Source: Bdellovibrionales bacterium
Lineage (GTDB): Bacteria > Bdellovibrionota > Bdellovibrionia > Bdellovibrionales > UBA1609
NCBI GenBank assembly: GCA_027317865.1
Contig: DAHVQG010000002.1
Coordinates: 249,700-313,699 of the forward strand
Direction of reading: 5' to 3'
Length of the DNA: 64,000 nucleotides
Shown here: one piece after another, positions 24,204 to 53,771 of the stretch
Position numbering within the stretch: position 1 is the first letter of the stretch
How the letters are laid out: the number at the start of each line of letters is the position of its first letter
The notes under the pieces: model-generated
The model's database searches: none
What the model was told of the DNA's origin: nothing
What the model saw: only the letters and a program-made list of their open reading frames with translations
Program-made: the position numbers and the translations under genes

Positions 24204-24204
24204 G

Positions 24205-24954: not shown

Positions 24955-24955
24955 T

Positions 24956-28684: not shown

Positions 28685-28685
28685 A

Positions 28686-29633: not shown

Positions 29634-29635
29634 TT

Positions 29636-30322: not shown

Positions 30323-30346
30323 ACGACCTCCTTTGAATCAGTTCGA

Positions 30347-32788
30347 TTAAGCGCTCTTCTTCTGTTCATCTTTTTCACTCGCCAGCTTTTTTAGAATCTC
30401 GATTTTTTTCAGCTCCGGATGCCTTCTTTCAAGCTCTTGAATTCGCGCTTTATCGCCGGCGTCGCTGGTGCAGATCCAGTATGAAAGTGGCTCGGAGGTC
30501 AACCGTAAAACGATTTGATTTTCATCCTGTAGAAAAAAGAATTCACTATACGCACCTTTTACGACTTCTAAGCTCTTTATCGCTTCAACCTGCGCGTCGG
30601 TGAAATCAAATGTTTCTTGAAAATCCTTCCAGTCAATTTTTCGTTGCTTTAGAATAATGACGCTTGTCGAGTTTGGCATAAGCGCATCGCGGATCTCGGG
30701 ATCAGCCAAAAAATCGCGATAGTTCTGGCTAATGCACCAAATACCGGCGTTGTACTTTCGCCACGTTCTGTAGCAGGTAATAACAAACTGCTTTGATAGC
30801 TCGCCGCTTTTAAAAAACCGCTCGGCCTCGTCACAAATGAGTAGATATGGTCGCGCGAGATCCGATGCCGCTGCATCCTGAATGTACGATGTCAAAAGTA
30901 ATAGCAAAATGTCTTTAAGGTCCGGATGGTTCGTGAGTCCATTTACCTCGATGGTGACAAGATCCTTTGACAAATTGATTGTACTTGGTCCATCGAGCAT
31001 TCTACCGTAAGCCGTTTCACCACACCACGAAAATAGAATCTGCGCGAATTTTTGCATTTCTGGATCGTTATGCTTTTCTAGTGCGGTTTTCAGATCCGAC
31101 AGAAATGGAACACGCGCGGCCGACCCTTTGTATACGGCAAAAATCGCTTCTTCGAGCATGGCCTTTTCACGTTTTCCTAAAGATTTTTGGTTCGGGTCTT
31201 TAAGAATAAGTTCTAAAATTGCGAGTATCAATTTAACCCGCGCCGGAGATGGCGTGGCTTCGCCGTTTGGAAGATCAAACACATTAATCCGAATGCCGCT
31301 TTCTAAGTTCAAGTCGACAAATTCGCCGTCTAATACTTCGAGCAATTTTTGCGAACTTGCGCCATTATCGATCCAAAAAAGCCGGGGCGTCGGTTTTTGA
31401 CCGTAAAACATGAGCATCAGCTGCGAGATCGTGAAGCTCTTGCCGCTGCCTGTTCCGCCGAAAATCAGACCGTTCCACGCGGGCAATTCCTGCGCAAACG
31501 GTGAAAACGAAAATAGACCGCCGTCACGGTTTGGGATGAGGCACACTGGGCTTTGGTTCCCGCGCCAGTTACCATAGAGCGGGAGAAGATGTGCAACATT
31601 ACTACTCTTCATTTTGTAGTGGCGAAGGCCGCTACACGCACCGGGTAGGGCGTCGATAAAAACGTCAAAACCTGGCAGCGTTTCTACGATCCCTTCAGAT
31701 TGACCCATCTGTCGAAACGCTTTTAGAACTTCGTCCGATTTCTCTTCGAGCTCCTCTTGCGATTTAGCCCAAATGATTACGGTAAAATCCATCGATACGA
31801 GTCGCTCACTTCCGTCGAGTAATTCACGTAGCAAGGATTCGATATCGTTTAGTTTTGACTCGCTTTCGAGGTCAGAAACATTTTCTGATCCGCCGGCCAT
31901 CGAATTGGCCACGCGACGCTTGAGTTCTAGGCGCTGCCGTTCGCGTATTTGATCCAAAATTTTTATATTCTGGCTCATCCAAAAGTGAAACGGTAACGAC
32001 AAAGTCAAATTGTTAATTATAGAGCTATATGTCGAACCTTCAGGAAGCGTTTTCAAGGTGACTGTGCGGAAAAAATAATCGCCAACTCGCAAATGACCAC
32101 GATGGACTTCAATATCTGAAAGTGTCAACTGTTCAATTATTGACGGAGCGAGTGGGTCCCCGGATTCACGCATCGACGGTAATGGGTAGTGTTCTGCGCG
32201 ATCAAGGTTTAGGTATTGAAATACAAGACTAAACCACTCCTCGGGCTCAAGTTTTGCCGGCTTTAGCCCCGAATGTATCAGCGAAGATTCAATTTGCTTT
32301 AACGCTCGATCGAATTTTTCTCTATGAGCTGTATATTCTGACTCTGCAATGGGTTCGTATTTTTTTTGCGACTCCCAAAAACGGCGCTTTTTATAAGAAT
32401 ATGGTTTGCTTCGAATAAAAAGATAGAATTCCGGCACGAAGTAATTTTTTTGCGCTTCATTTCTCTTTAGAAACGATATCCGAGCCTCGGCAATTGGCCG
32501 ATAAATCTCTGGGGCTTCACTTGAAATCGCTGCATGTTCGGTGAGCAGGGCGCTTACATTTGGGGTCACGCGATAAAAGATCTGAAGCTTGAGCCCTTCT
32601 TCCGTACCAATTAACAGATTTTCGACTTTTCTTGTAAAGGTATTGATTTCGTCGGGTGTGCGGCACGAAATATCGACTCCTGTTAGCCGAAATGCACCGC
32701 CAAGTGAGCCGTCAGAATACACCATTAAATCTTGATCGAAGTGCCAAAACGGCAGGCGATCCGCGAGACCCGCAATATTATTTTTCAT
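30347..32788 (-). CDS. virB4: VirB4/TraC-family T4SS ATPase
   Basis: Walker A GGTGSGKS, IDNGAS, Walker B LICDEA, RKYNAG..ISQ; about 810 aa. Confidence 0.9.
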   Translation of the reverse strand: MKNNIAGLADRLPFWHFDQDLMVYSDGSLGGAFRLTGVDISCRTPDEINTFTRKVENLLIGTEEGLKLQIFYRVTPNVSALLTEHAAISSEAPEIYRPIAEARISFLKRNEAQKNYFVPEFYLFIRSKPYSYKKRRFWESQKKYEPIAESEYTAHREKFDRALKQIESSLIHSGLKPAKLEPEEWFSLVFQYLNLDRAEHYPLPSMRESGDPLAPSIIEQLTLSDIEVHRGHLRVGDYFFRTVTLKTLPEGSTYSSIINNLTLSLPFHFWMSQNIKILDQIRERQRLELKRRVANSMAGGSENVSDLESESKLNDIESLLRELLDGSERLVSMDFTVIIWAKSQEELEEKSDEVLKAFRQMGQSEGIVETLPGFDVFIDALPGACSGLRHYKMKSSNVAHLLPLYGNWRGNQSPVCLIPNRDGGLFSFSPFAQELPAWNGLIFGGTGSGKSFTISQLMLMFYGQKPTPRLFWIDNGASSQKLLEVLDGEFVDLNLESGIRINVFDLPNGEATPSPARVKLILAILELILKDPNQKSLGKREKAMLEEAIFAVYKGSAARVPFLSDLKTALEKHNDPEMQKFAQILFSWCGETAYGRMLDGPSTINLSKDLVTIEVNGLTNHPDLKDILLLLLTSYIQDAAASDLARPYLLICDEAERFFKSGELSKQFVITCYRTWRKYNAGIWCISQNYRDFLADPEIRDALMPNSTSVIILKQRKIDWKDFQETFDFTDAQVEAIKSLEVVKGAYSEFFFLQDENQIVLRLTSEPLSYWICTSDAGDKARIQELERRHPELKKIEILKKLASEKDEQKKSA

Positions 32789-33083
32789 AGATATTGGTTC
32801 GTAGCCTTTCTTGAAATTCAGGTTGCGCGCCTGCGGCATAATGGCCCGGCGTTAAGTAAAATCGCAACAGGTGGAGTAAAAATCCATCAGGTTTATTGCG
32901 CTTTCCTAGATATAGTACGAGCAGCATCGCAACTGGCACACATACGACAATCGGTAAAGGTAGGTGAAGAACATTGAGAATCGAGAGAGCAATCAAAGCC
33001 GCGATGAGATCGAGGGCCTCCATGCCCCCGATCTTCACTCTAACGTCAAGCCCACGGTGAACTGCGGACCTATTCAACTCCAC
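32778..33083 (-). CDS. VirB3-like membrane protein
   Basis: Two TMs, directly upstream of and overlapping virB4. Confidence 0.65.
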   Translation of the reverse strand: MELNRSAVHRGLDVRVKIGGMEALDLIAALIALSILNVLHLPLPIVVCVPVAMLLVLYLGKRNKPDGFLLHLLRFYLTPGHYAAGAQPEFQERLRTNIYEK

Positions 33084-33766: not shown

Positions 33767-33810
33767 ATTATTTGTAATTGACCGACAGTAAATCCATTCC
33801 GAGATTTTAC

Positions 33811-34152: not shown

Positions 34153-34280
34153 CAGAACCGTCCGTATAACCCGTATTTGATTCGAGCTTCATCGCGTGCC
34201 TTTCTTAATCGTTCCTCATCAACTTTTATTTCAAAAAGTATATAGTGGACCCGCTTAAAAATTTGGCGGAGCTTATCCAT
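34149..34280 (-). CDS. 43-aa small protein (below ORF-track cutoff)
   Basis: MDKLRQIFKRVHYILFEIKVDEERLRKARDEARIKYGLYGRFW; SD AAGAGG; overlaps both neighbours. Confidence 0.6.
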   Translation of the reverse strand: MDKLRQIFKRVHYILFEIKVDEERLRKARDEARIKYGLYGRFW

Positions 34281-34752
34281 TGGATGCCTCTTTTGAAAAT
34301 GGGATTACATTCGAGGTTTGCCTCTCGACAGTTTCATCGGGGCGCCGAAAACTAACGACGTTTTCAATGCTGACAACGCGAGCTTCTGGCTTGCCATTAC
34401 CGCCGTTTTCTAGAAATTCCTGACACTCGATACAAAAAGTGCAGTCCGGCTGTGCATCGAGACGCCTGGGATCAATTTCTTCTTCGCATCCTTCACACAC
34501 ACCGAAAATCCCCATGTCGATTCGTCTGAGTGCTCGCGCCAATTTGCCAGCTTGCCTTTCGATATGTCGAAACATACCCATTCGTTGATTGCGATCGCTC
34601 AGTTCTTTTGCTTCATCGAGTGGGTCGGGTAAAATTAATGGGTCTTCGACAATCGCGCGCAATTCGGATTCGAGACCCTCCCACATTTGGTGGAGGGCGC
34701 GCTGTCGCTCCAAGATATTGTCTTTGAATTTTTGTAGCTGTTCGTTTGTCAC
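34273..34752 (-). CDS. TraR/DksA C4 Zn-finger protein
   Basis: DPLDEA coiled-coil tip; CEGC...RRL.A.P....CIEC; likely GTG start 34752 after GAGGAGG. Confidence 0.88.
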   Translation of the reverse strand: MTNEQLQKFKDNILERQRALHQMWEGLESELRAIVEDPLILPDPLDEAKELSDRNQRMGMFRHIERQAGKLARALRRIDMGIFGVCEGCEEEIDPRRLDAQPDCTFCIECQEFLENGGNGKPEARVVSIENVVSFRRPDETVERQTSNVIPFSKEASNG

Positions 34753-34813
34753 GTTTTTCTCCTCCTCGTGGGGGGAAAAATTAGCCCCACGACTTTCTGT
34801 TACTGCAAGAGGA

Positions 34814-34830
34814 GTCAGCGATCGTGCCAA
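34814..34830 (-). promoter_or_regulatory. Putative sigma54 promoter of the tra operon
   Basis: TTGGCACGATCGCTGAC: perfect -24 element; GG-N10-GA with non-consensus -12. Confidence 0.6.
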
Positions 34831-34897
34831 CAGACGAAAAGTAATTGGATTGATTAAGAAAAAATGGATTTTGCTCGAACGTGGCCGAACTTAAAAA

Positions 34898-34973
34898 TGA
34901 ACGCAGTTACGTCCACGAATTTTGAATTTCAATGTGTTATCGCAAACATGATGAAAAGACGTATCTACGTCCA
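34898..34973. promoter_or_regulatory. Two palindromic enhancer-like sites
   Basis: TGAACGCA-GT-TACGTCCA (34898-34915) and AAGACGTA-TC-TACGTCCA (34956-34973). Confidence 0.7.
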
Positions 34974-35182
34974 TTCGATCACTCAAATTTAGTGCGGAAT
35001 AATTTGGAGAATTAGTTCACGTCGAACAGGACTCGACGCCGGCGGGCCATAATGACTGCTTCATTTCCGGCCGGCACCGGCCCGCATTGATTTAAAGTGC
35101 CTGCATTTTGGGCCGGGCTTTCCGTCGGCTGCGGCTCATATTCGCACCTTTTAATACGGCTTACGATCGTAGAGGCTACTAT

Positions 35183-37234: not shown

Positions 37235-37265
37235 AATATTATTACACCCGATCGACTAAAACGAC

Positions 37266-39527: not shown

Positions 39528-39654
39528 CTAAATTTCCCCTACAAAAAGTTTATCACAGTTTTAATAGCCATAAGCGTGTTTCAGATACTCTTGTGCATTT
39601 TTAGGAAAACAAGTCTCAAAATGAGGCAATGACCAGTCACAATTCTACACAGCA

Positions 39655-40821: not shown

Positions 40822-41126
40822 AAAAGATTCAAGAAATTAAACATTTAGGAGACAAAGGTCGCCAGGTTTAGCAACGTAATACGTTACCTATTAATTTTGG
40901 CCTAGACAGCAGTATAGTTGAGAATGCCCTCTATACCTAAGGTTGATAGTCTAACCGATATCGTTACAACCTTTGTTGAGACTAGAATGCGCTCGGCAAT
41001 CAGAAGAATATAAGCTGCCCCGGCGGCCCTGCCTGTATCGATATACAGGCAATTTCAAGCATTACGCCAAAGTAATCAACCGGTTGGCGCCAGCCAACGG
41101 TAGGTCCAGCTCCGAAATCGCTACCA

Positions 41127-42578
41127 TTAGGCCGACGGCAGCGATTCGTTTCCATGTCTCCCCACGCCGACGCCGACGTCATCGAGACTGACATCGTGGT
41201 CGTTCAGCTCCGAACGAAGACCGTGCCTATCAATTAAAGTGTGAAGCGTCGACGGGCTTATACCCATCCGCGCGGCAGTCTGGCGAAGCGTTGGGCCGAG
41301 GCTAATTTGATACCGAATGAATTCGCGTTCCGCGTTCTGTTGCTGCGTCTTAAATCGTTTATGGCTGGCGTCCAGTACCGGGTTCGCTTTACCGTCAAGG
41401 CTCTGCATTTTCTTGTCGAGGTGATGAAATTCAATTGTATCACTTCGAGTGTTCGTAAGGAGCGCTGACACGTACCCATCCAATTCGCCAACATTTCCGG
41501 GCCACGGATATTTTTCAAGCTGTCGCATGGCCGCTTTACGGAATTCTTTTCGCTCGCCGGTCTCCTTGAAATGTTTGTCGCAAAGATGAAGCACGATCGG
41601 CTCTATATCTTCAGTTCGCTCGCGCAAAGGTGGAATTTCGATGCAAAGAAATTTGATTCTATAATAAAGGTCGGGCAAAAATGATTTGTTGGCTACGCGA
41701 GCCTCAAGGTCAGGATGCGAAGCCACGATCAGCCTAAAATCGACATCAACCTCTTGTTGAGCGCCCACTCGTCGAACTTTCTTCTCGCGAATTACACGCA
41801 GTAGTTTCGCTTGAGCCTGCGGAGCCATGTGATGGATCTCATCCAGAAACACGGTGCCACCTCGCGCGGCTTCGAAAATTCCAACTTTCCGTGCTATAGC
41901 GCCCGTGAACGCGCCTTTCTCATGCCCAAACAGCTCTGACTCAAACAAATTGCCCTCATCCGAGACAGTACAACTGAAGGTAAAAAATTTCTCAGCAGGA
42001 CCATTATGAATCATGCGCGCAAAGATCTCTTTGCCGACCCCAGTTTCTCCGAGAAGGAGCACCGTCTTTTTGGATTGCCGGTAATCCAACGCGTTTGAGA
42101 TACCCTCTGCAAGGGCGCGCGATCTCCCAGCGAGATTTTGCCCTGTAATGATCTTGGTAGCTTCATCTACAGACAGCGTCGGTTTAACCTTTCGCACTTT
42201 TTCATATAGCTCACAGGCTTTACCCAGAGATTCTTTGAGAACGTCGTTGTTTTCGGTGCGTTCAATATAGTTTAGGGCTCCAGCCCGAATAGTGGCCACA
42301 GCGTCATCTTTCGAACCTTCGTAAGCGGTGTAAATAATAGTTATGATTTCGCCGTTTAGTTTTCTTATTTCATCCGCCGTTTGCGGGCCATTTTTTCCGG
42401 GCATACGAAAGTCAATGACCGCTACCGAATATTCTTTAGATGCTGCACGAATACAGTCGATAGCCTCCTCGCCGCTTGTGACGGTGTCGATATTATAACC
42501 CCACCGCTGAATCAAACTTCGTATATCGATTAGGTTGTCTTCGTCATCGTCTACAATGAGAATGTTATGTTTGAGCAT
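41127..42578 (-). CDS. Sigma54-dependent response regulator (REC-AAA+-HTH, NtrC/AtoC family)
   Basis: [46 protein letters not shown]-terminal HTH; start ATG 42578 after GAGG. Confidence 0.93.
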
Positions 42579-44019
42579 GCGCCACCTCGTATCGTTCGGT
42601 TCCTCGGTCGATGTTTGCCGGGCAAAACGAAATAAAAAACTCTGTTCCGCGTCCCACTTCTGACGAAAAGCTAATCGTTGCATTAAAGGAGTCACAAATA
42701 CCTTTTACGACCCCAAGGCCGATGCCGGTGCCTCGAAGAGGTTTTGTTGTAAAATCAACTTCGAAAATTCTTTCGCGATTTTCAATCGGGATACCGCATC
42801 CGCAATCTTTTACAATCATCGTCGGTCTGCCGTCCGCATTCGTAATCCGGATCTCGATTGTTTTCTCCTCGCACTCCGCCATTGCTGCAATTGAATTTTG
42901 CACAATATTTTCGAGTACCCTGTAAAACTCGATTTTGTTTATGTTCGCTGGCGGGACAATTCCGTCTTGGAAAAAATCGATTTGCACGTTATTCCGTAAA
43001 AATTCATGATCGTCGCGCAAACTCGAAATGTAATTACTGACTTCTTCCTTCAATAAAATGACGCTATCGCGACGATCACTAGACGCTCGTTTAATCAATG
43101 GGTAACGAACGAGTCGGATGATGTCACCCAATTGGCTAATAGAGCGTTTAACACGCGCGATTTCTTCGGTATCGTAGCGACCCGTTAATTCAATGGTGCT
43201 GACCATGTTCTCGACTTGCATAGCAAGACGCGAATGGGGTGTTTTTAGGTCGTGGCCAATCTCACGAAGAAGGCCGAAATGGGCCAAAGCGCGAGCTTCA
43301 TTTGCGGCAACTTCTTGAAGTCGTCTTATTTCTAAATGGAGGCCGTCTACTGCTTCTTTCATCGGCGCTAAGTCTGTAAACGGAGCAATCGACCGATTCT
43401 CAATGCGCCTACTTGGCGCATCCTTGAGATGTTTTGCCCATTCCTGAAAGAGTGAAGACAATTTTCGGGTTGCATTGCCGATTGCACTGAATATCCCGAT
43501 CGTGTTGCCGACAAATGCACCAAACAATACAAAGAGAAGGCAGAATAAAATGTTGTAATCGAGTGCGGGCTTGAGTGTAAGGTCAAGGTACCCGAATAGA
43601 TTTTTGTGTCCTGGCTCGTCAAAATATAGTGGGTATAACATGCTCACGCTACGAAAGTGCGGCGACCAACATGACACGTTGGGGCTGAAGCAGTTGGGTC
43701 GGACGGGCGACTTTGGATCAACCGAATAGATTTCTTTTAATTTTGCATTTCGAACGACTGCGGATTCTCCAGCTTTTAACCCAAGCGCTGTTTGCATTTG
43801 AATTTCGGCGTCGCGCACGTCTCCTTGTAGAATCATGGGCCGGTATGCAGTTGCAGCCGCGCGTGCAACGGTCAAAAGCTGTCGCTCCGATACATTTTTT
43901 TGAGCGTAAAATAAAATTGGAGCGGCGATTGCGGTTGCAACTACGAATGAGACAAGCGACCATCGTATCGTTTGCCGTCGAAAATATGATTCTAAAGATG
44001 TGCCTTTTTCGTCGCGCAT
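42565..44019 (-). CDS. Membrane sensor histidine kinase
   Basis: Two TMs around a periplasmic domain; GHDLKTP, NIVQNS, DCGCGI, FTTK, GTGIGL. Confidence 0.92.
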   Translation of the reverse strand: MRDEKGTSLESYFRRQTIRWSLVSFVVATAIAAPILFYAQKNVSERQLLTVARAAATAYRPMILQGDVRDAEIQMQTALGLKAGESAVVRNAKLKEIYSVDPKSPVRPNCFSPNVSCWSPHFRSVSMLYPLYFDEPGHKNLFGYLDLTLKPALDYNILFCLLFVLFGAFVGNTIGIFSAIGNATRKLSSLFQEWAKHLKDAPSRRIENRSIAPFTDLAPMKEAVDGLHLEIRRLQEVAANEARALAHFGLLREIGHDLKTPHSRLAMQVENMVSTIELTGRYDTEEIARVKRSISQLGDIIRLVRYPLIKRASSDRRDSVILLKEEVSNYISSLRDDHEFLRNNVQIDFFQDGIVPPANINKIEFYRVLENIVQNSIAAMAECEEKTIEIRITNADGRPTMIVKDCGCGIPIENRERIFEVDFTTKPLRGTGIGLGVVKGICDSFNATISFSSEVGRGTEFFISFCPANIDRGTERYEVAHAQT

Positions 44020-44024
44020 TTTTC

Positions 44025-45485
44025 CTACTTAAAACGAATTTTTGACCAAGTAACCGATTCATCCGATAGGGGCACTTTTGAAAAATCTAAGCCGTCGCGG
44101 CCGATGCCGACAGTAGAAAGATGCATCAGCGGGAGAACATATCCATCCCTCACGGCTTCGGCGACAATTCTTCTCATTGCGGCCACCCGCTGCACTGGAT
44201 CAGTCATGCGTCGAGCGGCATCAAGCAATTTTACACAGTTGATAGTCCCAGATGGAACGACTGGTGTCGTTCCTTCGAAGTAGAAAGACATAATCCCTTC
44301 GGGATCTGGATCAGCAATCCCATATGTGCCCGCATAAAGATCGAAGTTGCCGACCTCGCGCCGCTGAAAAGCTTCCTGAAGTGGTAACGATATAAAATTC
44401 GCCTCTATCCCCAATTTTTTGAGCGCTATCTCAATATTGTGTTTGAGATGAGGCGGCACTCTCGCCGGGCTCATCAAAATATCCAATTTCTTTTTGAACG
44501 ATTCACCCGCCTCACCATCTTTTGGCTGCTGATAATTTAAATCGTATAGCTGGTAGCCTTTAGGAAACAGCTGATGGGCGACTGTGAAACCTGAAAGTCC
44601 TTCGGTCAGCGTACTACGATCGAGGTGCGCATTGAGAAACTGAAGTAATGCGTAGCCCTGGCTATTTCTCATCCGCTTGCCAAGTTCAAACAGAAAGACT
44701 TTGTCGATCGGCCGCCGCCATACTTGATAACCGCTAGATTCATAGCTGTGAGATAAGTCGCGAGAGAGGAGTGACGAAGTTTCGATAAAATTTGGCCATC
44801 TGTCATTTAACAGCACTGATTGAGAATCCATGGTCAGACTTGGACGCCGAATGATCACCTCTTCAGCCACGCCGTCCGAAAAATTGTGCCAATTCGGATT
44901 GCGTTTCAATATCAACTCTTCATGAGACCCTGAAGATAAATAAAATGCGCCCGTACTTACCGAAAGATTAATTTCACCATTAGGCTGCACTTTCAAAATA
45001 CCGTAATTTGGCTCAGTGAGTTTCTGGAGAAAAGTGCTTTGAGCAGCAGGCATCTTTAAATAAAAAGTGATGGTCGTCTGATTAGGGCATTCGATTCTCT
45101 CCAGCATGTTGGCGAGGCTTCTCATGTCTTCCGGATATTTTTTTAAATCGCGCTCAAAACTTCGCTTAATTTCTTCACTAGTTATAGGAGAACCGTCAGA
45201 CCATTTGGCATTTGGGCGCAACGTGAAGCTGTAGGCATTCTCAGCCGAAATTTTCCACGTTGCAGCAAGGCCCGAGGTCAATTGCTTTGCCGGGCTCCAT
45301 TCAACCAACGTGCTGGCCAGAGCATACGAAAGATCCATATCTGGAATGATCACAATTTTTGCCGGGTCAACGGGGTAGTTAAACGGCAGGTATGTTCTGA
45401 TCTCTTTCATTGGTCTCTCCGGGGTTTTAGTGACCGCCTCACTTCGAATCGCAATAATACTCAATAGCAATATTAAAATTTTCAT
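44025..45485 (-). CDS. Family-5 (OppA/DppA-like) periplasmic binding protein with no linked permease or ATPase
   Basis: Signal peptide; GLA..W, FTLRPNAKWSDGSPITSEEI..SF, STGAFYL, L.RNPNW. Confidence 0.85.
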   Translation of the reverse strand: MKILILLLSIIAIRSEAVTKTPERPMKEIRTYLPFNYPVDPAKIVIIPDMDLSYALASTLVEWSPAKQLTSGLAATWKISAENAYSFTLRPNAKWSDGSPITSEEIKRSFERDLKKYPEDMRSLANMLERIECPNQTTITFYLKMPAAQSTFLQKLTEPNYGILKVQPNGEINLSVSTGAFYLSSGSHEELILKRNPNWHNFSDGVAEEVIIRRPSLTMDSQSVLLNDRWPNFIETSSLLSRDLSHSYESSGYQVWRRPIDKVFLFELGKRMRNSQGYALLQFLNAHLDRSTLTEGLSGFTVAHQLFPKGYQLYDLNYQQPKDGEAGESFKKKLDILMSPARVPPHLKHNIEIALKKLGIEANFISLPLQEAFQRREVGNFDLYAGTYGIADPDPEGIMSFYFEGTTPVVPSGTINCVKLLDAARRMTDPVQRVAAMRRIVAEAVRDGYVLPLMHLSTVGIGRDGLDFSKVPLSDESVTWSKIRFK

Positions 45486-45494
45486 TTATAAAAT

Positions 45495-45532
45495 GGGCTG
45501 AAGCAGTTGCGTGAAGTGCGACTGCTCCGCCC
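45495..45532 (-). terminator. Stem-loop between peptide and SBP genes (partial terminator or mRNA stabiliser)
   Basis: Minus strand GGGCGGAGCAGTCGC-ACTTCAC-GCAACTGCTTCAGCCC then ATTTT. Confidence 0.6.
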
Positions 45533-45540
45533 AACCTCGC

Positions 45541-45690
45541 TTATCCGCAAGACGCGCCAGATGCGCCAAATTGTACTATTCCGCCACAAGGCTCGGCACC
45601 TTGGGCTGACGTCATCAAGTGTCGAGCACCAAATGAAAAATAGGTGCCCGCGATTAACATCGCGAACATCAGATTTTTTAGTTTGGACAT
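45541..45690 (-). CDS. 49-aa putative RiPP precursor / signalling peptide
   Basis: SD AGGAG before ATG 45690; MSKLKNLMFAMLIAGTYFSFGARHLMTSAQGAEPCGGIVQFGASGASCG; starts 19 nt after the YcaO stop. Confidence 0.8.
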   Translation of the reverse strand: MSKLKNLMFAMLIAGTYFSFGARHLMTSAQGAEPCGGIVQFGASGASCG

Positions 45691-45709
45691 TTTTTCTCCT
45701 TCGACTCCG

Positions 45710-46765
45710 CTACGGTACACAATGAGGCAAAGAGCAGAGTCTATTTGTTTGCCGCACATTCCAAAGTCGACGCCGATTCAACAGGCCAATCCTGTCTGCA
45801 TCGGCCGTTCGACCAAAAAATAATTTTTGTACTTCATTACTTGAGCAGTATCCGACTGAAATCGGCCCTGAAATAACCTGATGAAATTCGGCGTTCCGAG
45901 TGCGCCGAGAAAACTCATTGTACTGATTACGCCACGTTTTATTAAGTTCACTATACGAAACGACCGGCCCGAATATCCACTCCGGTACTGGAATGTGATA
46001 CGCGTAGACCATTGCGTGGTCGATAGGCGTGAAGCTACTAGCGGCAATGTCGCGTGCTAGGTTTCGAGATGACTCCTTAAATTCGCCGGCCATTTCAACT
46101 TCACCAATGCGACAGGTTTCAGCCAACGCTTTATAAACGGCCTCACCCAAGGTCGCGGCGCTCGCTTGCGACATTAGACCGTGACCGTCAGACGAGAGAA
46201 GCAATGTCATTACGGCCGGCACAACGCCTTCAGTGGTCGCAAAAACACAAAGTCTCTTGAATCGAGGATGTAGTGCGAGTTCGTTGTGGCCCCAATCGCG
46301 CAACCATTCAGGAGCAGATTCTAGATCAACACTTAAAAAAGATTTTTCGCAAAGCCAGTGAGCCAAAATGGCGTCTCGCTCGTACAACTCTTCAACGGCC
46401 GATTTTTGTACCCGTACTGGGTCGACGTGTGCCGCCCAACCGTTTGACGTCAATATTTTTGGATCGCGGGCTTTCATCATTTTGTAAACTGCGCGCTCAA
46501 CGCCTTCGACGATACATTTTTGATTGGCTACGAGCTGACTTTCAGATTCTCCGTAGCCGTAACCCAAGTCGTCACCCGCTCGAACTTCGCTCACAAATGA
46601 AAATTTCGAAAATCGTAAGCCCGGCGACCTTTGAGATCTGAACAACTTTTTTACTTTTATATCGATGATCTCGCCGCTAGAAAGGGTTGCTTTGACACCG
46701 TCTAGGTACACGGCGATTTTACCGCTATTCATAATCGCTCGAATTTCTGTCCGTACACTTCTCAT
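45710..46765 (-). CDS. YcaO-family protein (stand-alone)
   Basis: EGVER, TSNGWAAH, ELYERDA, ALAE motifs; C-terminal PHCVP resembling the YcaO PxPxP tail. Confidence 0.85.
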   Translation of the reverse strand: MRSVRTEIRAIMNSGKIAVYLDGVKATLSSGEIIDIKVKKLFRSQRSPGLRFSKFSFVSEVRAGDDLGYGYGESESQLVANQKCIVEGVERAVYKMMKARDPKILTSNGWAAHVDPVRVQKSAVEELYERDAILAHWLCEKSFLSVDLESAPEWLRDWGHNELALHPRFKRLCVFATTEGVVPAVMTLLLSSDGHGLMSQASAATLGEAVYKALAETCRIGEVEMAGEFKESSRNLARDIAASSFTPIDHAMVYAYHIPVPEWIFGPVVSYSELNKTWRNQYNEFSRRTRNAEFHQVISGPISVGYCSSNEVQKLFFGRTADADRIGLLNRRRLWNVRQTNRLCSLPHCVP

Positions 46766-46815
46766 TCAAAAGCTCTCTTCATGGCGGCAAAGAAAACCGC
46801 ACAACTTTCCACCTG

Positions 46816-46832
46816 AGCATTTCGCGGGCCAA
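46816..46832 (-). promoter_or_regulatory. Putative sigma54 promoter of the ycaO-peptide-SBP-HK-RR operon
   Basis: TTGGCCCGCGAAATGCT = GG-N10-GC, about 50 nt upstream of the ycaO ATG. Confidence 0.7.
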
Positions 46833-46930
46833 TGGCACCGGACCATCAAAAATGAGGTCTAAGAACTTGAAAGTACGGGAGTTTATCACTTGCTTAAAAA
46901 TTAAGCAGCGGGAAATATTTACTATGAAGA

Positions 46931-47049
46931 TGGACGTAGTTACGTCCACCTGGCGGGTGGCAAACCGGCGATTGTAGGTACAAGTCAGCAAAAGTATTCA
47001 ACTTATCTTATTTATTTGAATTTATGAGTGGTGGACGCGTTTACGTCCA
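46931..47049. promoter_or_regulatory. Two palindromic enhancer-like sites
   Basis: TGGACGTA-GT-TACGTCCA (46931-46948, perfect) and TGGACGCG-TT-TACGTCCA (47032-47049); further half-site at 47325-47332. Confidence 0.75.
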
Positions 47050-47688
47050 CTAACCTTCATTTCGTATTTAAACGACAGCCATGGTGATCGGATTTGCGTT
47101 CGGGCGCCGAAAACCCGGCTAATTTTCACTTGGCGCCGAAGGGTTCGAACTATTATCAGGCCGTTACTCTGCCATTGCATTATTAAACGAAGCTCCGGGT
47201 TGACCGTAAAACGTGTCAAAAAAGGACATTAACAGCCGCGATTCTCGATGTGTCTTCAGCGGATGCGCCGGCGCGGGCTGAACTCTTGCCGCATACGAGT
47301 CCTCGGACTATTTATACAGCGAACTACGTCCACGCCGCGTTTGAGCGCGCCCTTGGCTGCCAGACCAGCTAATATTCTTCAGTTTGATTTACACTCCATT
47401 TAGCGTAGCCAGCGCAGTCAAACCTTACCGTAACCACAAAACAGGGTGTTGATTGTCGAGCATCGTTTGTCGCTTGAGTTTGTCAAAATGTTTATTTTAA
47501 TTTTCTTCAACTTCAAACTAAATTGATTTCACTAAATATTTAGTGCCTCAAAACGAGTGCGTCGAGGTGGAAACACATTTAAATCAATTTAATTTAATTA
47601 TGTAACACCGATCCGGTTAAAGGTTTTTTAAGAACTAGCCGATGGTCTGGTGTTCCACAAATTTGAACGTGACCGGGGGGGGAATTCT

Positions 47689-50600
47689 ATGGGGCGCAAA
47701 TGCAATGTCATTTTATCAATCGTGGCTTGTCTATTTGGCGTGTTATTTATTTGTAGATTGGCTAGCGCACAATCCACGCAAAGTATAATTGTTCAAACTC
47801 CTGGGATTTCACCAATTGACGGAGTCCAGGGATCAATACCGATTGATCCAGAAATTAATTTTGGCGAAGTGGTAATCGGTCAATCATCAACAATAGGACC
47901 ATATGGTGGTTACGTTGATTGTGGCGGCAGTTGCGGAGCCGGGGTGGACTATAGTTTTTCGGCAACCTATTCCGGCTCAAGTGATTTTACGGTTATGCAG
48001 CCAGCTTGCACAAGCGGAGATTCTGGGTATCCAGGCTGCTTAATAACCGTAACATTCAAGCCGACTTCGGTCGGCTTGGAGACTTTCACTGTCAACCTAT
48101 ACGAAACGTTAACCCAAAATGGTCAGGTAACATTTTCGGGAATATGGGCCACAATTGTCTACACTGGTACGGGCGTCAAGCCAGGGCAGCCACCGACTAA
48201 TTCCACCACCAGCTGTGGCCAATCTGCCAGTTCATCAATCAACATGGACACACTCGCGCTTTCCGAATCGATCCCACTTGTCGGCGTGCCGGTGACACTT
48301 AATTACTCTAGTGATCGGTTTCGACCGGGATTTGCGTTTTCTCCAAAATCGTTGGGGCTTGGCGGATGGTCACCAAGCATCCTGCATCACTATGATGTTA
48401 CGGACCAAATTCTTTACGATGGCGATGGCGGTTCGCGCCCGGTCCAAGCTGGCACTGATTCGAATGGGTACTATGTTGCGAGTCAAGATGCCCACAAAAT
48501 TTATTATTTCGACTTAAATGGAAATCATTTATACACGAAAGATGCGCTGACAGGCGTTACAATTTATAGTTTTTCTTATGATCCACAAGGTAGACTCAGC
48601 GCGATAACAGATCGATATGGCAACACAACAACGTTTCAGTATTCCGCAAATCAAGTGACAATGACTTCGCCTTATGGGCAGCAAACGATTATGGCTTACG
48701 ACCCAAATGGATTTTTGTCTTCAGTCACGAATCCGGATTCTGAAACCTACAGCATGACCTATGACTCAAATGGTTATTTATTGTCGTTTGAAAAACCGTC
48801 TGGTGAGACAAGTCACGCAACATACGACTCAAATGGGTATGTGCTAAGTGACCTCGGAGCTGGTGGAGATTCACTGAACTTGTCGAGTTACTTTGATCCG
48901 TCATCGCAATATCAAACCGTGAATTCGACAACGGCGCTTGGGCTAACGACATTTTATTATACGAGTGCAAACTCAAGCGGGTCCACGCACGAAGTAAGCT
49001 ATCCGACCGGTCAGTATCGATATGCTTATACTCCCAACATCGGAGCTGGCTATTTGTTTGACTCGGAGGGCATCAGCACGACATCTAACCTGGTCCCAGA
49101 TCCACGATTTGGTGCAATGTCGCCGTACGATCAGGATTTTACGTATTCGGTTGCGAACTCAAATATTGACGTTTCAACGCAAAAAAATGTAACGGCAACT
49201 CTATCGAATTCAAGTGATCCACTAAGTCTCACATCTCTTACGACAACAACTGAGCTTCAAAACGATCCATCTAGAACATCGACCGAAACTTATACGGCTG
49301 CTACAAGTATGATGACTAACGTCTCACCTCTTGGACGAGAAACAACAACTTTACTTAATTCACAAGGCGAAGTTCAGTCCGTAAAAATTGGAAATCTCGT
49401 GCCAATTGACTTTGGCTACAATGGGCATGGAAATCTCACGACATTGTCTATGGGATCAAATCGAAATATGACACTCCAATACGACAATTTAGGTAATGTA
49501 TCGTCTGTTACAAATTTTCTGGGTCAAGCTACACAATTTGAACACGACAAGGCAGGACGTGTAACCGAACAAATTGAGCCAAATGGCAACATCATAAAAT
49601 TTGGCTATGATCCAGATGGCGACCTAACATCGGTCACACCTCCTTCGCGCCCCGCGCACGAGTTTGGATACAATCTATTTGATCTCGTCTCAAGTTATTT
49701 GCCGCCTGAACTTGGAGGCTCAAGTGCTTCTACCACGTACAGTTACAATGCCGATAAACAACTCACAGCCATTAATTTACCAACAGGAGCCACGATCAGT
49801 TACAACTACGCTTCGACGACCGGACTTCTTGATTCAATTGCAATGCCAGACGGAAATTTCACTTATTCATACGTGCCGGATTCAAATCTCGTATCTCAAA
49901 TCGTCTCTCCCGATAATGAAATATTGAGCTATCAATACGCGGGCAAATTTGTCACAAGCGAGGCCTCAAGTGGACCAGTCACCTCGAATTTGTCGATCAC
50001 ATACAATGCCGATGCGACCGTTGCATCGCTTACTCCTACTGATCCATATAATGCGGGAACGACAGAAAATATCTCGTACGACAAAGACGGCCTGGTAGTT
50101 GGATCAGGTGATCTCTCGATGACGCGCAATCAAAATGGCCAAATTTCAAGCACATCGCTAAAAAATATTAACGAAAGCATCACTCATGATGCTTTCGGTG
50201 AAATGACGGCTGATCAGTTCACTTTTACATCGCCTTATGGACGGCAAAATAAATTTGAGATCTTTAATCAACAATATACACGCGACAAACTTGGCCGGGT
50301 TGTAGCTATTGGCTCGGCACGAAATGATGGCGACTGCGACAAAGATCATGGACGCTGCGACGATGACTTTGGGCAAAACGGTCACTTCGGTGGCGACGAA
50401 GGTCATCATTTTGGCCAGCAAACTGAGTACGTGTATGACAGTAGTGGCAACTTAGTTAAAGTCATGAAAGATAATCATGTTGAGCGAATATATAAGTACG
50501 ATCAAAACGAAAACCGTATCGAAGAAATCGCGGATGGTCGTATTATCCATGCCTCATACAATTCACAAGATGAACTCGTTAAGTACGGCAATATCAGCTA

Positions 50601-51663
50601 TCAATACAATAGCGACGGAGAACTTACGAAGAAAACCGTCCATATCGATGACCACGACTCATTTTGGAATTGGCTCACTGGGCGCGACCGTGGATTTGAC
50701 CATAGGAGAGGTATCGCGAGTTGGGGAGATCACCATAACGAAGGTCGGGACCTTGTTACAACTTATTCTTACGATGCAATGGGTGAACTTAAAACCGTCA
50801 AACTCCCTGATGGCCGTTTCATCAGCTACATTTACGACGGCCAAGGTCGACGCGTTGGTAAAGAAATTAATGGCAAACTTGTCGAAGGATTTGTGTATCA
50901 ATCTCAGACCCAGCTTGCGGCCATACTTGATGGTCAGGGCCACATTATGAAACAATTTGTGTATGGCTCAAAGCCAAATATTCCCGATTACATGATTATG
51001 AACGGTAAAGATTATCGAATCATTTCAAACCAAGTCGGCACACCACTTTATGTGGTAAATTCCGAAACCGGAAAAATTGTTGAACATGAGCGAATGGACG
51101 AGTTTGGATATGACGAGCACACGATTCGACGTCCAATGTTGCCATTTGGATTTGCCGGTGGTCTTGCAGATGCCGACACGGGTCTTGTTCACTTCGGTGC
51201 TCGCGACTATGACCCGCAGACGGGTCGTTGGGTGAGCCGCGATCCCATTTTGTTTAAGGGCGGCACCACGAATTTATACCAGTACAGTTTGAACGATCCC
51301 GTGAATTTCAGTGACTCAAACGGACAACAAATATCGCTAGTCGTCGGCATAGGTATGGTTGCAATAGGTTCAGCTGTTGCATCTGGTGTCGCCAGCTATA
51401 TCGCGACGGGTTCAGCATCTACTGCTCTCGGCGCTGCTGGAGCAGGGTTTGTAGCTGGTACAGTAGCCGCAGTAACTGCAATTGCTGGCGCCGGTTCAGC
51501 AGTAGCGGCAGGAGCGGCGGCGGTCGTCGATATAGGCTACGGGCTGCTATCAACGCCAAGTAATTTGCCACCAAATAGCGGGACCGATCTCATGAATGGT
51601 GTCAAATCCATTGGATCGCAAAATAGTAGCGTTGCGTGCCCAGGCTCGGCGGGCTCACAATGA
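47689..51663 (+). CDS. Secreted RHS/YD-repeat (teneurin-like) protein with C-terminal hydrophobic putative toxin domain
   Basis: Signal peptide, Ig-like domain, YD repeats, PFGFAGG..D.DTGLVHFGARDYDPQTGRW..RDP..NLYQY..NDPVNFSDSNG core end. Confidence 0.9.
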   Translation: MGRKCNVILSIVACLFGVLFICRLASAQSTQSIIVQTPGISPIDGVQGSIPIDPEINFGEVVIGQSSTIGPYGGYVDCGGSCGAGVDYSFSATYSGSSDFTVMQPACTSGDSGYPGCLITVTFKPTSVGLETFTVNLYETLTQNGQVTFSGIWATIVYTGTGVKPGQPPTNSTTSCGQSASSSINMDTLALSESIPLVGVPVTLNYSSDRFRPGFAFSPKSLGLGGWSPSILHHYDVTDQILYDGDGGSRPVQAGTDSNGYYVASQDAHKIYYFDLNGNHLYTKDALTGVTIYSFSYDPQGRLSAITDRYGNTTTFQYSANQVTMTSPYGQQTIMAYDPNGFLSSVTNPDSETYSMTYDSNGYLLSFEKPSGETSHATYDSNGYVLSDLGAGGDSLNLSSYFDPSSQYQTVNSTTALGLTTFYYTSANSSGSTHEVSYPTGQYRYAYTPNIGAGYLFDSEGISTTSNLVPDPRFGAMSPYDQDFTYSVANSNIDVSTQKNVTATLSNSSDPLSLTSLTTTTELQNDPSRTSTETYTAATSMMTNVSPLGRETTTLLNSQGEVQSVKIGNLVPIDFGYNGHGNLTTLSMGSNRNMTLQYDNLGNVSSVTNFLGQATQFEHDKAGRVTEQIEPNGNIIKFGYDPDGDLTSVTPPSRPAHEFGYNLFDLVSSYLPPELGGSSASTTYSYNADKQLTAINLPTGATISYNYASTTGLLDSIAMPDGNFTYSYVPDSNLVSQIVSPDNEILSYQYAGKFVTSEASSGPVTSNLSITYNADATVASLTPTDPYNAGTTENISYDKDGLVVGSGDLSMTRNQNGQISSTSLKNINESITHDAFGEMTADQFTFTSPYGRQNKFEIFNQQYTRDKLGRVVAIGSARNDGDCDKDHGRCDDDFGQNGHFGGDEGHHFGQQTEYVYDSSGNLVKVMKDNHVERIYKYDQNENRIEEIADGRIIHASYNSQDELVKYGNISYQYNSDGELTKKTVHIDDHDSFWNWLTGRDRGFDHRRGIASWGDHHNEGRDLVTTYSYDAMGELKTVKLPDGRFISYIYDGQGRRVGKEINGKLVEGFVYQSQTQLAAILDGQGHIMKQFVYGSKPNIPDYMIMNGKDYRIISNQVGTPLYVVNSETGKIVEHERMDEFGYDEHTIRRPMLPFGFAGGLADADTGLVHFGARDYDPQTGRWVSRDPILFKGGTTNLYQYSLNDPVNFSDSNGQQISLVVGIGMVAIGSAVASGVASYIATGSASTALGAAGAGFVAGTVAAVTAIAGAGSAVAAGAAAVVDIGYGLLSTPSNLPPNSGTDLMNGVKSIGSQNSSVACPGSAGSQ

Positions 51664-51896
51664 CGCCAGAGGATCGAGCTACTATTTTGATTCGCATATT
51701 TGGTCCGCTGTGTTTAATACTGAGCCCGATATGGCTTATTTTAATGATACCAGCTGGATTGCACGCGATGCATACACGACACCCTTTATCGGCCGGGCAA
51801 TGGATTTTTATGCTTTTTTTAGGCATCGGCGGTGTTATTTGCGGGCTTTATTGCATGATAACCCAATATGGGTGGTTTCAAAAAAAAGATGAATGA
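51660..51896 (+). CDS. Small two-TM protein, candidate RHS immunity protein
   Basis: ATGA overlap with the RHS stop; two hydrophobic helices. Confidence 0.6.
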   Translation: MTPEDRATILIRIFGPLCLILSPIWLILMIPAGLHAMHTRHPLSAGQWIFMLFLGIGGVICGLYCMITQYGWFQKKDE

Positions 51897-52182
51897 CTGC
51901 ACTTTCTTGTTAAATTAATATGTGAATCTTAGCTGGTCCCGTCGAATCGGATGACACACAGGCCGATAATCTCGGGCCGGGCCGAATAGAAGTCTGCGCA
52001 TTACGATTCAGAATCGAATATCACGCGAGCGATGGAGTCGACACCTAGATGTCAATGGTGCCGGCTGGCCGTGGCCAATATAAACCCAAAAATCGATACG
52101 CGTGTGAACAAGTGGATAATTTAGCTGACAATTTGTGCCGTCTCGACGGCAGCACCACCGAACCGCTACTCCGTTTGGTACA

Positions 52183-53661
52183 TCAATGTAGCGGCGGTGA
52201 TCGTCGCGAGCCGTCGACGTTAATATCTTTTTCAACAGATGAATCTTCGTTTGATCGTTTCTCAGGTGACTTGTCCAGACCCAATGCGGCTCGGCGGTGA
52301 TTCATAGTCGAGTGGCTCAGGCCAAGAAGTTTGGCGGCGTCGCCCCTTCTGCCGTTTGTTGCCGCGAGCGCAGCCGTTAATAAATGTCGTTGAGCTTCCA
52401 TGTAAAGTTGGTCGATATCTTTCATGGGAATAATTTTTCGAGAATCACGAATTTGTCGTAACTGCGTGATCGATTCTCCGAAAGAATCTTTGCCGATCAC
52501 GTCTTTGACATTTTTTTCGGTAATCGTGCCATTGGCGAGTGCGAATGCTTCGTTCACGGCGTTTTCAAGTTCGCGTACATTGCCAGGCCAATTGTGACTC
52601 TTAAGCGCCCTTACGGCTCCGGCAGTAATCGATTTAACTAGATTCGACTTTGCTTCCATCTTGCGCAAAAAATGATGAATTAATGGTTCAATGTCTTCTG
52701 GTCGTTCGCTGAGCGCCGGAACTTCAATTCTCATGCACTTTAGCCGAAAATATAAATCCGACAAAAACTGATCTTGTTCGGCAGCTTTAACAAGATTTCT
52801 GTTGCTCGCAGCGATCACTCGAAAATCTATTGATTTGTCGACACCGCCCACCGGTCGAATCACTTTCTCTTGTAAAACTCGAAGGATCTTTGCTTGCAGT
52901 TCAACGGGCATTTTGTCGATCTCATCGAGAAATATTGTGCCACCGCTAGCTTGCTCGAAAGCGCCGATTTTGTTCTGGTCCGCGCCGGTAAAGGAGCCCT
53001 TCATGTGCCCGAATAGTTCACTTTCAAGCAAATTTGCTGGGATCGCGCTACAGTTAATTACAATAAACGGTTTATTTTTACGTGGCGAATTGTCGTGAAT
53101 GGCTCTTGCAATTTGTTCTTTTCCCGAACCTGTCGGGCCAGTTAACAATACGTTTCCGGGAAATTGGGCGAATCGAGAGGTGAGCTCAGCAATTTTAGCT
53201 AACTCTTGAGAGCGACCAGTCATATTTAATACGCGCGCGATGACCTGTCGGTTCGCTTCTTCGTCTTGATGTACTTTGTATTCATCTTTAAAGAACATCG
53301 TTTTAATTGTATCGAGGAGTTGCTTCGGATTGCCTTTGATTAAAAAATCCTCAGCTCCAGCATCCAAGCACGCTCGACTGACTTGAGGATTTCCGCTGCC
53401 AGAGACCATAACGATTCGAACCTCAGGGCAGACTGTCTTTAGTTGGCGCGCGACCTCATCGCCGTTTATGCCGACGCCGTCTCTTTTCATTTCATAGTCG
53501 AGTAAAACAAATGGATATTTCCTCGGATCTTCTTTAAATAGGATGATACCTTGTTCACCTGATGTGGCCGTTTTGATTTCGAAGCCATCATCTTTAAACA
53601 GCGTTTCAAGCGTTGCCAATGCAAGTGGATCATTGTCGATAGCGAGGATGACAAGTTTCAT
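52183..53661 (-). CDS. Second sigma54-dependent response regulator (no adjacent kinase)
   Basis: REC domain, GPTGSGKE, ESELFGHMKGSFTGA, WPGNVRELEN, HTH. Confidence 0.92.
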   Translation of the reverse strand: MKLVILAIDNDPLALATLETLFKDDGFEIKTATSGEQGIILFKEDPRKYPFVLLDYEMKRDGVGINGDEVARQLKTVCPEVRIVMVSGSGNPQVSRACLDAGAEDFLIKGNPKQLLDTIKTMFFKDEYKVHQDEEANRQVIARVLNMTGRSQELAKIAELTSRFAQFPGNVLLTGPTGSGKEQIARAIHDNSPRKNKPFIVINCSAIPANLLESELFGHMKGSFTGADQNKIGAFEQASGGTIFLDEIDKMPVELQAKILRVLQEKVIRPVGGVDKSIDFRVIAASNRNLVKAAEQDQFLSDLYFRLKCMRIEVPALSERPEDIEPLIHHFLRKMEAKSNLVKSITAGAVRALKSHNWPGNVRELENAVNEAFALANGTITEKNVKDVIGKDSFGESITQLRQIRDSRKIIPMKDIDQLYMEAQRHLLTAALAATNGRRGDAAKLLGLSHSTMNHRRAALGLDKSPEKRSNEDSSVEKDINVDGSRRSPPLH

Positions 53662-53771
53662 ACGGCTCAAATAATACGTCTGCACGCCAATTTGCGCGCA
53701 AAGTAATATCGACTTTTATTGTTTACTTAACATTGATGAAGCATCCGGAGTCTAGGGCAAGCGATTATGGC

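Follow-up and report, generated by a model that had tools for sequence, protein, structure and literature searches.

RNA polymerase holoenzyme containing σ54 needs an activator bound upstream of the promoter, and activators of this kind only activate. In the autoregulated operons of the NtrC family, such as glnAp2-glnALG (encoding NtrB and NtrC), ZraSR and AtoSC, the promoter is of the GG-N10-GC type and dyads are found 100-250 bp upstream. Here, we describe a control region that resembles these, ahead of a ycaO-like gene in a Bdellovibrionales genome. The DNA analysed, hereafter called the window, is a stretch of 64,000 nucleotides (G000:C22:249700-313699) from a genome of 2.65 Mb with 47% G+C. 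Our subject is the region at positions 46816-47332, together with the minus-strand cassette of five genes that it precedes: the ycaO-like gene, a small open reading frame (ORF), and genes for a family 5 solute-binding protein, a sensor kinase and a σ54-dependent response regulator. As in the NtrC family operons, this regulator combines a receiver, an AAA+ domain with the GAFTGA motif and a Fis-type helix-turn-helix, and is encoded in the operon that it would activate. The initial annotation, made from the window alone, had proposed such self-activation and had taken the positive feedback to be typical of quorum sensing.

On balance, we consider it rather likely that 46816-47332 is the control region of a self-activated σ54 operon, carried on an integrative conjugative element and fed by its own peptide. 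The parts of this proposal differ in strength and are taken in turn below.

Results

A predicted σ54 promoter precedes the ycaO-like gene

The control region is part of an 884-bp intergenic region (46766-47649), flanked on one side by the minus-strand operon and on the other by a plus-strand RHS/YD-repeat gene (47650-51663). Coordinates of all features are collected in Table 1. A GG-N10-GC element had been noted at 46816-46832 with no strand given; it is present, on the minus strand. The sequence TTGGCCCGCGAAATGCT is the reverse complement of these positions, and the C of its GC, at 46817, is 52 nt ahead of the ATG at 46765. The element reads TGGCCC-GCGAA-ATGCT, with GG and GC exactly 10 nt apart. 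The σ54 consensus is TGGCAC-N5-TTGCW, and we scored candidate promoters by a 7-point match to it.

On its own, the element is weak evidence. The core TGGC-N8-TGC was not enriched (6 in the window versus 8.3 expected), and sites scoring at least 5 occur genome-wide at 0.16 per kb per strand (851 sites). Within the intergenic region, it is the only GG-N10-GC site on either strand to score at least 4; the best σ54-type match facing the RHS gene scored 3. Comparison with relatives lifts the promoter assignment far above chance.

Relatives were gathered by searching 61 genomes and by scanning contigs, of which those from genomes yielded 11 loci and those from metagenomes 18, giving 29 loci in total. 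Three distant loci without the cassette (L032, L049 and L050) were excluded from all counts, which left 26. The related genome records are metagenome-assembled genomes of Bdellovibrionales and Bdellovibrionia. Among sequencing runs, one DNA run from a mine-drainage metagenome contains every sampled word of the stretch and may be its source; no RNA run was listed for the locus. Sequence upstream of the ycaO-like gene was available for 22 of the 26 loci. The window and 21 promoter-bearing loci were grouped, by promoter and operator sequence, into 11 lineages. The copy of the locus in a second genome of the genus (G006) has 99.96% DNA identity, is rearranged, and adds no footprinting power.

A GG-N10-GC element scoring at least 5 was found ahead of the ycaO-like gene in 21 of the 22 loci, 9-66 nt before the extrapolated start. 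The locus without a match, L038, has only about 73 nt available before that start. From lineage to lineage, the N5 spacer varies and TGGC and TTGCT on either side of it are retained, as expected of a functional σ54 promoter. We are confident in assigning 46816..46832 as a σ54 promoter. The minus strand of the control region has no σ70-like promoter, and such promoters numbered 13 in 34000-48000, against 21.7 expected. Searching Rfam with 46600-47750 gave 0 matches at E ≤ 1.

The leader also contains a six-codon mini-ORF (MKRAFE, stop) on the minus strand at 46766-46790. Its TGA overlaps the ycaO-like ATG (ATGA), which may reflect coupled translation or mere coincidence.

Palindromes recur at similar distances from the promoter

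Two palindromes had been described upstream, a perfect one at 46931 and a near-perfect one at 47032. Both are there, the second with 2 mismatches. Their centres are 101 bp apart, and they are identical at 14 of 17 positions, a level that 0 of 300 shuffles reached. When the distal site of the G006 copy is read as a 20-mer, it has perfect 7-nt arms. Two further copies, 58 bp from each other, are found 12 kb from the control region, ahead of the dksA/traR-like gene that heads a cluster for an F-type type IV secretion system (T4SS). Allowing up to 3 mismatches, the 18-bp palindrome family has 4 members in the window, a number attained by none of 100 shuffles (0.14 expected). Across the whole genome, at up to 2 mismatches, just those 4 sites were found; a reversed control pattern gave 0.

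When the loci are anchored at the promoter, each lineage shows a dyad of its own, once close to −120 and a second time close to −215. The window has TGGACGTA-N2-TACGTCCA, and L033 has ATGACGA-N4-TCGTCAT. Lineages L034 and L043 carry TGCGCAA-N4-TTGCGCA. The remainder have N3 spacers: ATTCAGG-N3-CCTGAAT in L036, ATACAGA-N3-TCTGTAT in L041, CCACAGA-N3-TCTGTGG in L040 and L042, ATTCAGA-N3-TCTGAAT in L023, and ATTCAAA-N3-TTTGAAT in L047 and a large clade.

Recurrence was assessed without reference to any motif. For each lineage, the best 17-mer common to the intervals −140..−90 and −240..−185 was compared with that of 300 shuffles. Nine of the 11 lineages gave 13-16 matches out of 17, equalled by no more than 11 of 300 shuffles (0 in six lineages, 1 in L030, 2 in L043 and 11 in L047). 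An automatic best-palindrome finder with 8-nt arms was dropped for this two-interval test. The finder had returned the expected site in 7 of 11 lineages and had chosen other AT-rich dyads in L034, L043, L027 and L030. The large clade provides a further comparison. Synonymous sites of the small ORF differ by 27-38% between its members, and by nearly 60% from L047. Despite this divergence, the clade keeps the four sites and the promoter, which makes this a genuine footprint.

The initial annotation also listed a half-site at 47325 and an IHF-like site at 46884-46896. The half-site is present at 47325-47332. The window contains 7 copies of the 8-mer TACGTCCA, where 1.17 are expected (a count reached in 0 of 100 shuffles); the genome contains 40, of which 6 are in the two control regions. 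The half-site is thus moderately unlikely by chance. Beside it, the left half matches at only 3 of 8 positions, and it is possibly a remnant of further sites. The IHF-like match likewise exists, with one mismatch, and is at chance level. Matches to WATCAANNNNTTR with up to one mismatch occur at 1.48 per kb on the contig, so about 0.15 would be expected in the 98-bp gap, and only 2 of 11 lineages have one between upstream site and promoter. An IHF-assisted promoter is thus not supported; the genome has 3 HU/IHF-family genes. Overlapping this match is a perfect AT-rich palindrome, TGCTTAA-AAA-TTAAGCA. It is the sole perfect copy in the genome, where 2 further sites have 1 mismatch and a control pattern gave 1 per strand.

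The cassette regulator is the probable binder of the palindromes

The response regulator gave a PF00158 score of 177 bits and has GAFTGA and a Fis-type C-terminus; its probable true start is near 42578. Pfam reported HTH_8 for the L020 protein and not for that of the window. The nearest NCBIfam models are ZraR, NtrC and AtoC (ZraR 254 versus a cut-off of 760). Of the enhancer-binding proteins, this is the only one whose gene is conserved across the loci; the genome has 15 full activator genes.

The predicted recognition helix can be set beside the operator in six lineages. Operators of the GACG type accompany helices PSTLHT (window) and RTTLKS (L033). Those of the ATTCA type accompany PNRLHY (clade c), PNGLRY (L047) and PSHLQY (L023), and CCACAGA accompanies PNHLRH (L042). 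The helix changes where the operator does, which is suggestive.

A gene for a second σ54-dependent response regulator, with helix HSTMNH, is found at 52183-53685. G006 has identical sites and no orthologue of this protein (best identity 38%). Hence, the second activator is disfavoured as the binder. It is encoded near a large CheB-CheR-PAS-histidine kinase-receiver fusion protein (55979-59872). Our assessment is that the palindromes are probably bound by the cassette's own activator.

The cassette encodes a YcaO superfamily protein and a candidate peptide

The gene order of the cassette (ycaO-like, small ORF, binding protein, kinase, activator) is the same in the 26 loci, as far as contigs reach. 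Gaps of 55 nt and 5 nt, and overlap of the last two genes, make co-transcription likely.

The ycaO-like protein scores 34 bits against Pfam YcaO (cut-off 25.7). Its AlphaFold2 model has a pLDDT (predicted local distance difference test) of 96.7, and all 41 fold matches in the PDB (Foldseek, E ≤ 0.001) are YcaO enzymes, with TM values of 0.38-0.56. They include the Methanopyrus and Methanocaldococcus YcaO proteins, LynD, McbD, E. coli YcaO and TruD. By sequence, a 9-sequence profile had 0 matches in the PDB at E ≤ 0.01. The family comprises about 100 clusters at E ≤ 1e-30. Residues E87, E90, R91, E126, E129, R130 and H348 are invariant in 83 sequences, giving two E-x2-E-R motifs and a C-terminal histidine. 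We take the two motifs to correspond to the known acidic ATP/Mg-binding residues of YcaO. On fold and motifs, the predicted structure places the protein in the YcaO superfamily. The thiazole/oxazole-modified microcin (TOMM) cyclodehydratase model of SagD type, TIGR03604, scored 41 bits against a cut-off of 219, and the cassette has no TfuA partner.

A small secreted ORF follows the ycaO-like gene in 12 of the 12 lineages for which that interval was sequenced. In the long type, of 96-113 aa, the motif P-[ST]-[SC]-hydrophobic-G is found close to the C-terminus. Among the short ORFs, those of the window, L033 and L035 terminate in runs of Gly and Ser, and their penultimate residue is Cys; that of L034 has a Gly/Ser-rich end without Cys. 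Ser, Thr and Cys are abundant in these C-terminal motifs. In the large clade, the ratio of non-synonymous to synonymous polymorphism (pN/pS) was 0.12-0.21, which indicates purifying selection and supports coding status. Pfam gave no family at E ≤ 0.01 for six small ORFs. The AAGGAG-type ribosome-binding site of the 49-aa ORF was inferred from the ORF translation rather than read in the DNA. Within the part of this ORF that codes for the signal peptide, a 10-pair hairpin followed by a T-rich run (45645-45668, minus strand) could attenuate read-through from the ycaO-like gene, or be chance.

The solute-binding protein is nearest to the NCBIfam models NikA, OppA and opine-metal binders, all far below cut-offs. 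No permease or ATPase genes for it were found in the cassette, whether that of the window or those of the relatives; the protein is thus an orphan and probably serves as a co-sensor. Prediction of its complex with the peptide scored 0.00, which counts neither for nor against. YejA, of the YejABEF peptide importer, is likewise a family 5 binding protein. An azole-modified peptide is reported to enter cells via YejABEF (PMC10128002). This would make recognition of a modified peptide by the cassette protein chemically plausible. The kinase has two membrane segments and, judged by eye, a periplasmic loop of about 115 aa.

The same genome carries a paralogous module (G000:C11; L051 2180-6277) with a small secreted ORF of 103 aa, a ycaO-like protein of 317 aa, an SBP_bac_5 protein and a histidine kinase. 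Here, the ycaO-like protein scores just 16.5 bits against Pfam YcaO. There is no σ54 activator beside the module, and a resolvase gene is nearby. Its existence supports the view that peptide, enzyme, binding protein and kinase function together as a unit.

The palindromes may link the cassette to conjugation genes

Conjugative-element genes occupy 20726-34830. They encode a serine recombinase, a Replic_Relax protein, an FtsK/SpoIIIE-type ATPase, TrbI-like and CagX-like proteins, TraC, a TrbC-type pilin, a small σ70-region-4 protein and the dksA/traR-type zinc finger. Among 6 other genomes of the genus, just 1 has the ycaO-like gene, which fits a mobile element. In 11 related loci, TraC is upstream of the cassette, adjacent and divergent; the relation is the same in G006, with the RHS gene between.

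Lineage-specific palindromes are also found on the T4SS side: two in the window, three extra sites in L042 and one, with 1 mismatch, in L023. Relatives have a conserved TGGCAY-N3-TTGCAATTT there (L023 about 2620-2633, L030 about 8404-8417, L042 about 6337-6358), 50-70 nt ahead of the first gene of the transfer operon, which encodes the small zinc finger. Its spacing is GG-N8-GC rather than N10, with both σ54-type hexamers perfect. We marginally favour co-regulation of the T4SS operon by the cassette regulator.

The G006 contig (G006:C4; loci L019 and L022) matches window positions 30001-35146 and 41003-51933 at 99.7-99.96% identity. There, segment 41003-51933 is inverted and joined to 35146. 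Positions 35147-41002, which encode two large secreted proteins and a 388-aa ORF, are absent. A search for repeats at the junctions gave none; the difference could be a genuine rearrangement or one of assembly. On the other side of the control region, the RHS/YD-repeat protein, divergent from the ycaO-like operon, has 1337 aa, a likely true start at ATG 47689 and a signal peptide. An IS91-type transposase gene (61479-63023) is near the window end.

Table 1. Positions of the control elements and genes discussed in the text.
Feature	Position	Strand	Remarks
σ54-type −24/−12 element TTGGCCCGCGAAATGCT (GG-N10-GC)	46816..46832	minus	precedes ycaO-like gene; score 5/7
Proximal upstream activator site (predicted) TGGACGTA-GT-TACGTCCA	46931..46948		perfect palindrome; ~−118 from T of TGGC
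Distal upstream activator site (predicted) TGGACGCG-TT-TACGTCCA	47032..47049		2 mismatches; ~−219
Isolated half-site TACGTCCA	47325..47332		~500 bp upstream of promoter
IHF-like match TATCACTTGCTTA	46884..46896	plus	1 mismatch; chance level
AT-rich palindrome TGCTTAA-AAA-TTAAGCA	46891..46907		perfect; between proximal site and promoter
Third palindrome copy	34898..34915		2 mismatches; ahead of dksA/traR-like gene
Fourth palindrome copy	34956..34973		2 mismatches
TGGCACG, perfect −24-like element without GC at −12	34823..34829	minus	possible atypical T4SS operon promoter
ycaO-like gene	45710..46765	minus	351 aa; first gene of operon
Small ORF, candidate precursor peptide	45541..45690	minus	49 aa; signal-peptide-like N-terminus, Gly/Ser/Cys-rich C-terminus
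Orphan periplasmic solute-binding protein, family 5 (peptide/nickel type)	44025..45485	minus	signal peptide; Pfam SBP_bac_5 95.8 bits
Sensor histidine kinase	42565..44019	minus	HATPase_c 72 bits
σ54-dependent response regulator	41127..42695	minus	receiver, AAA+ with GAFTGA, C-terminal Fis-type helix-turn-helix
dksA/traR-type zinc-finger gene heading T4SS cluster	34273..34830	minus	likely start GTG 34752 after GGAGGAG site
TraC/VirB4-type ATPase of F-type T4SS	30347..32839	minus	TIGR02746 302 bits, below cut-off

Discussion

We propose that σ54-RNA polymerase would bind the −24/−12 element (46832..46816, minus strand), and that dimers of the operon's response regulator would occupy both palindromes (about −118 and −219). 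Phosphorylation by the kinase of the operon would then allow the regulator to open the promoter. The regulator would also act at the two sites ahead of the dksA/traR-like gene, coupling the cassette to the T4SS operon. The small ORF product would be a Sec-exported peptide, modified by the YcaO-like enzyme. In the periplasm, the orphan family 5 binding protein would recognise the modified peptide and pass the signal to the kinase, so that the most likely input would be the cassette's own product.

Positive autoregulation of the operon, as put forward in the initial annotation, is well supported by sequence comparison: the promoter is found in 21 of 22 loci, the palindromes are lineage-specific and unique in the genome, and the helices differ. 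Since σ54 activators only activate, the feedback would be positive if the cassette regulator binds the sites. The step from feedback to quorum sensing was weak as argued, because many two-component operons autoregulate; positive autoregulation is common among them. Quorum sensing is nonetheless plausible on predicted gene content (a secreted ORF after the ycaO-like gene and an orphan binding protein of peptide type) and on the conjugative-element location. For a self-made peptide signal in particular, we judge the case to fall a little short of even. More tentatively, the systems may form a hitherto undescribed class of Gram-negative peptide pheromones on Bdellovibrionota conjugative elements. 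The operator and helix (and peptide) pairs would then be insulated 'pherotypes' that limit cross-talk between co-resident elements, a possibility that we rate below the self-made signal.

Several points weigh against the proposal. The window promoter is off-consensus (TGGCCC, ATGCT; 5/7). In the host genome, rpoN is cut at a contig end (G000:C22:3-878), with profile positions 1-259 of 434 present, and the part for the DNA-binding domain was not found in the assembly of this 99% complete genome; the gene is full length in G006, G035 and G047. The two-interval test failed for L023 (28 of 300 shuffles) and L027 (217 of 300). NtrC-type sites are usually adjacent; here, the two are 86-101 bp apart. 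The link between helix and operator rests on six related, non-independent lineages. On the T4SS side of the window, no GG-N10-GC element scoring at least 3 was found in 34700-35182, and L033 has the cassette with no TraC within 7 kb upstream. The cassette contains no E1-like partner, dehydrogenase, dedicated exporter or protease. Signal peptides of the small ORFs were judged by eye, and the 49-aa ORF of the window does not align to the long ORFs (96-113 aa) found in other lineages.

The same control region and feedback could serve a different input. The system may sense a ligand of external origin (for instance, a peptide or a metal complex derived from prey or recipient cells), or the modified peptide may be mainly an antimicrobial or other effector whose production the system governs, as in lantibiotic operons. 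We think this unlikely, and it is the strongest of the alternatives. Family 5 binding proteins take many ligands, and the nearest models (NikA, OppA and opine-metal binders) are far below cut-offs; two-component operons commonly activate themselves; and most known products of YcaO enzymes are antibiotics or toxins. An RHS-repeat protein gene adjoins the operon, the paralogous cassette of the same genome has no activator, and entry of an azole peptide into target cells via YejABEF is reported (PMC10128002). Set against this, the small ORF is inside a sensing operon in every lineage with the interval, genes for immunity and export are absent, and the cassette is tied to conjugation genes and not to a biosynthetic cluster. 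The signal and antimicrobial readings are also compatible, as for nisin.

It is improbable, in our view, that the palindromes bind another protein (the dksA/traR-like zinc finger, the small σ70-region-4 protein, a repressor or the 52183-53685 activator) while the cassette regulator acts elsewhere. The HSTMNH helix does share its S-T start with PSTLHT, T4SS-side genes are likewise conserved with the cassette and could co-vary, and the spacing is unusual for an activator array. Conversely, the sites in G006 are identical in the absence of an orthologue of the second activator, and L033 retains promoter and palindrome with no T4SS nearby. Moreover, a σ54 promoter requires an upstream activator, for which the cassette regulator is the only one conserved in the loci, and dyads of 17-20 bp at about −120 and −215 are within the usual range for such activators. 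Chance matches or terminators with no regulatory role are more improbable still, to the point that we give the idea almost no weight. By itself, the GG/GC core is no commoner in the window than expected, and one palindrome is terminator-like on the plus strand. Yet the four copies are unique in the genome, and position is conserved in 9 of 11 lineages for the palindromes and 21 of 22 loci for the promoter. Terminator-like matches in 34000-48000 are no commoner than in shuffles (18 versus 15.0, standard deviation 3.9), and no plus-strand gene ends before the site. Hence, terminators were rejected.

If the proposal of a peptide-fed, self-activated σ54 operon is correct, the locus unites YcaO peptide chemistry, sensing by a binding protein plus kinase, and σ54 autoactivation, three things not known together. 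It would be a rare peptide autoinduction circuit in a Gram-negative lineage and, being on a mobile element, a likely switch for DNA transfer. In the openly accessible literature, covered as listings and abstracts, we found no cassette of YcaO enzyme, binding protein, kinase and σ54 activator, and no σ54 control of conjugation by such a module; within the same scope, this would be the first signalling role for a YcaO product. The lineages would also offer natural orthogonal pairs of activator and operator, at known positions, for studying new DNA specificities of enhancer-binding proteins. All of the parts are small, and transferring them to E. coli for reporter work would be feasible.

The likeness to NtrC family operons set out above has limits. 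Scores are far below equivalog cut-offs, so the regulator is no orthologue of any named regulator, and the upstream sites are separated rather than adjacent. The operon also adds a peptide-modifying enzyme, a small secreted ORF and a binding protein, and is borne on a mobile element. In these additions it is closer to staphylococcal agr (agrBDCA, with divergent P2 and P3), where modifying enzyme, precursor peptide, kinase and regulator share one self-activated operon, as they are predicted to do here. Other agr features with counterparts are regulator sites in a divergent intergenic region, a second promoter that drives the output, and divergence into specificity groups. Unlike agr, the cassette would use YcaO in place of AgrB, would rely on a signal peptide of Sec type, and would include a periplasmic binding protein as an extra component, with a σ54 activator where agr has a LytTR regulator. 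Its output would be a T4SS operon.

The Vibrio LuxP-LuxQ-LuxU-LuxO quorum-sensing relay offers the precedent of a periplasmic binding protein and membrane kinase that feed a σ54 activator, and LuxO and LuxN models are among the weak NCBIfam matches (208 versus a cut-off of 800). LuxP differs in belonging to another binding-protein family and in binding autoinducer-2 (AI-2), and LuxQ, a hybrid kinase, depends on LuxU. LuxO, unlike the activator proposed here, is active when no signal is present, and its targets are small RNAs rather than the operon that encodes it. For a mobile element whose signalling module licenses transfer genes, the parallels are pCF10 (PrgZ/PrgX), TraI/TraR of the Ti plasmid and RapI-PhrI of ICEBs1; PrgZ of pCF10 is itself an element-encoded family 5 binding protein of OppA type. 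In those systems, the signal is a peptide taken up to a receptor in the cytoplasm or an acyl-homoserine lactone, and none is known to use a YcaO enzyme, membrane kinase or σ54.

Finally, the enzyme shares its fold, Pfam score, paired E-x2-E-R motifs and adjacent small ORF rich in Ser, Thr and Cys with YcaO enzymes of ribosomally synthesised and post-translationally modified peptides (McbD, LynD/TruD and the archaeal thioamide-forming YcaO). Unlike them, it is short (about 320-360 aa) and stand-alone, and its putative precursor has an export signal. The cassette is a variant of known signalling logic.

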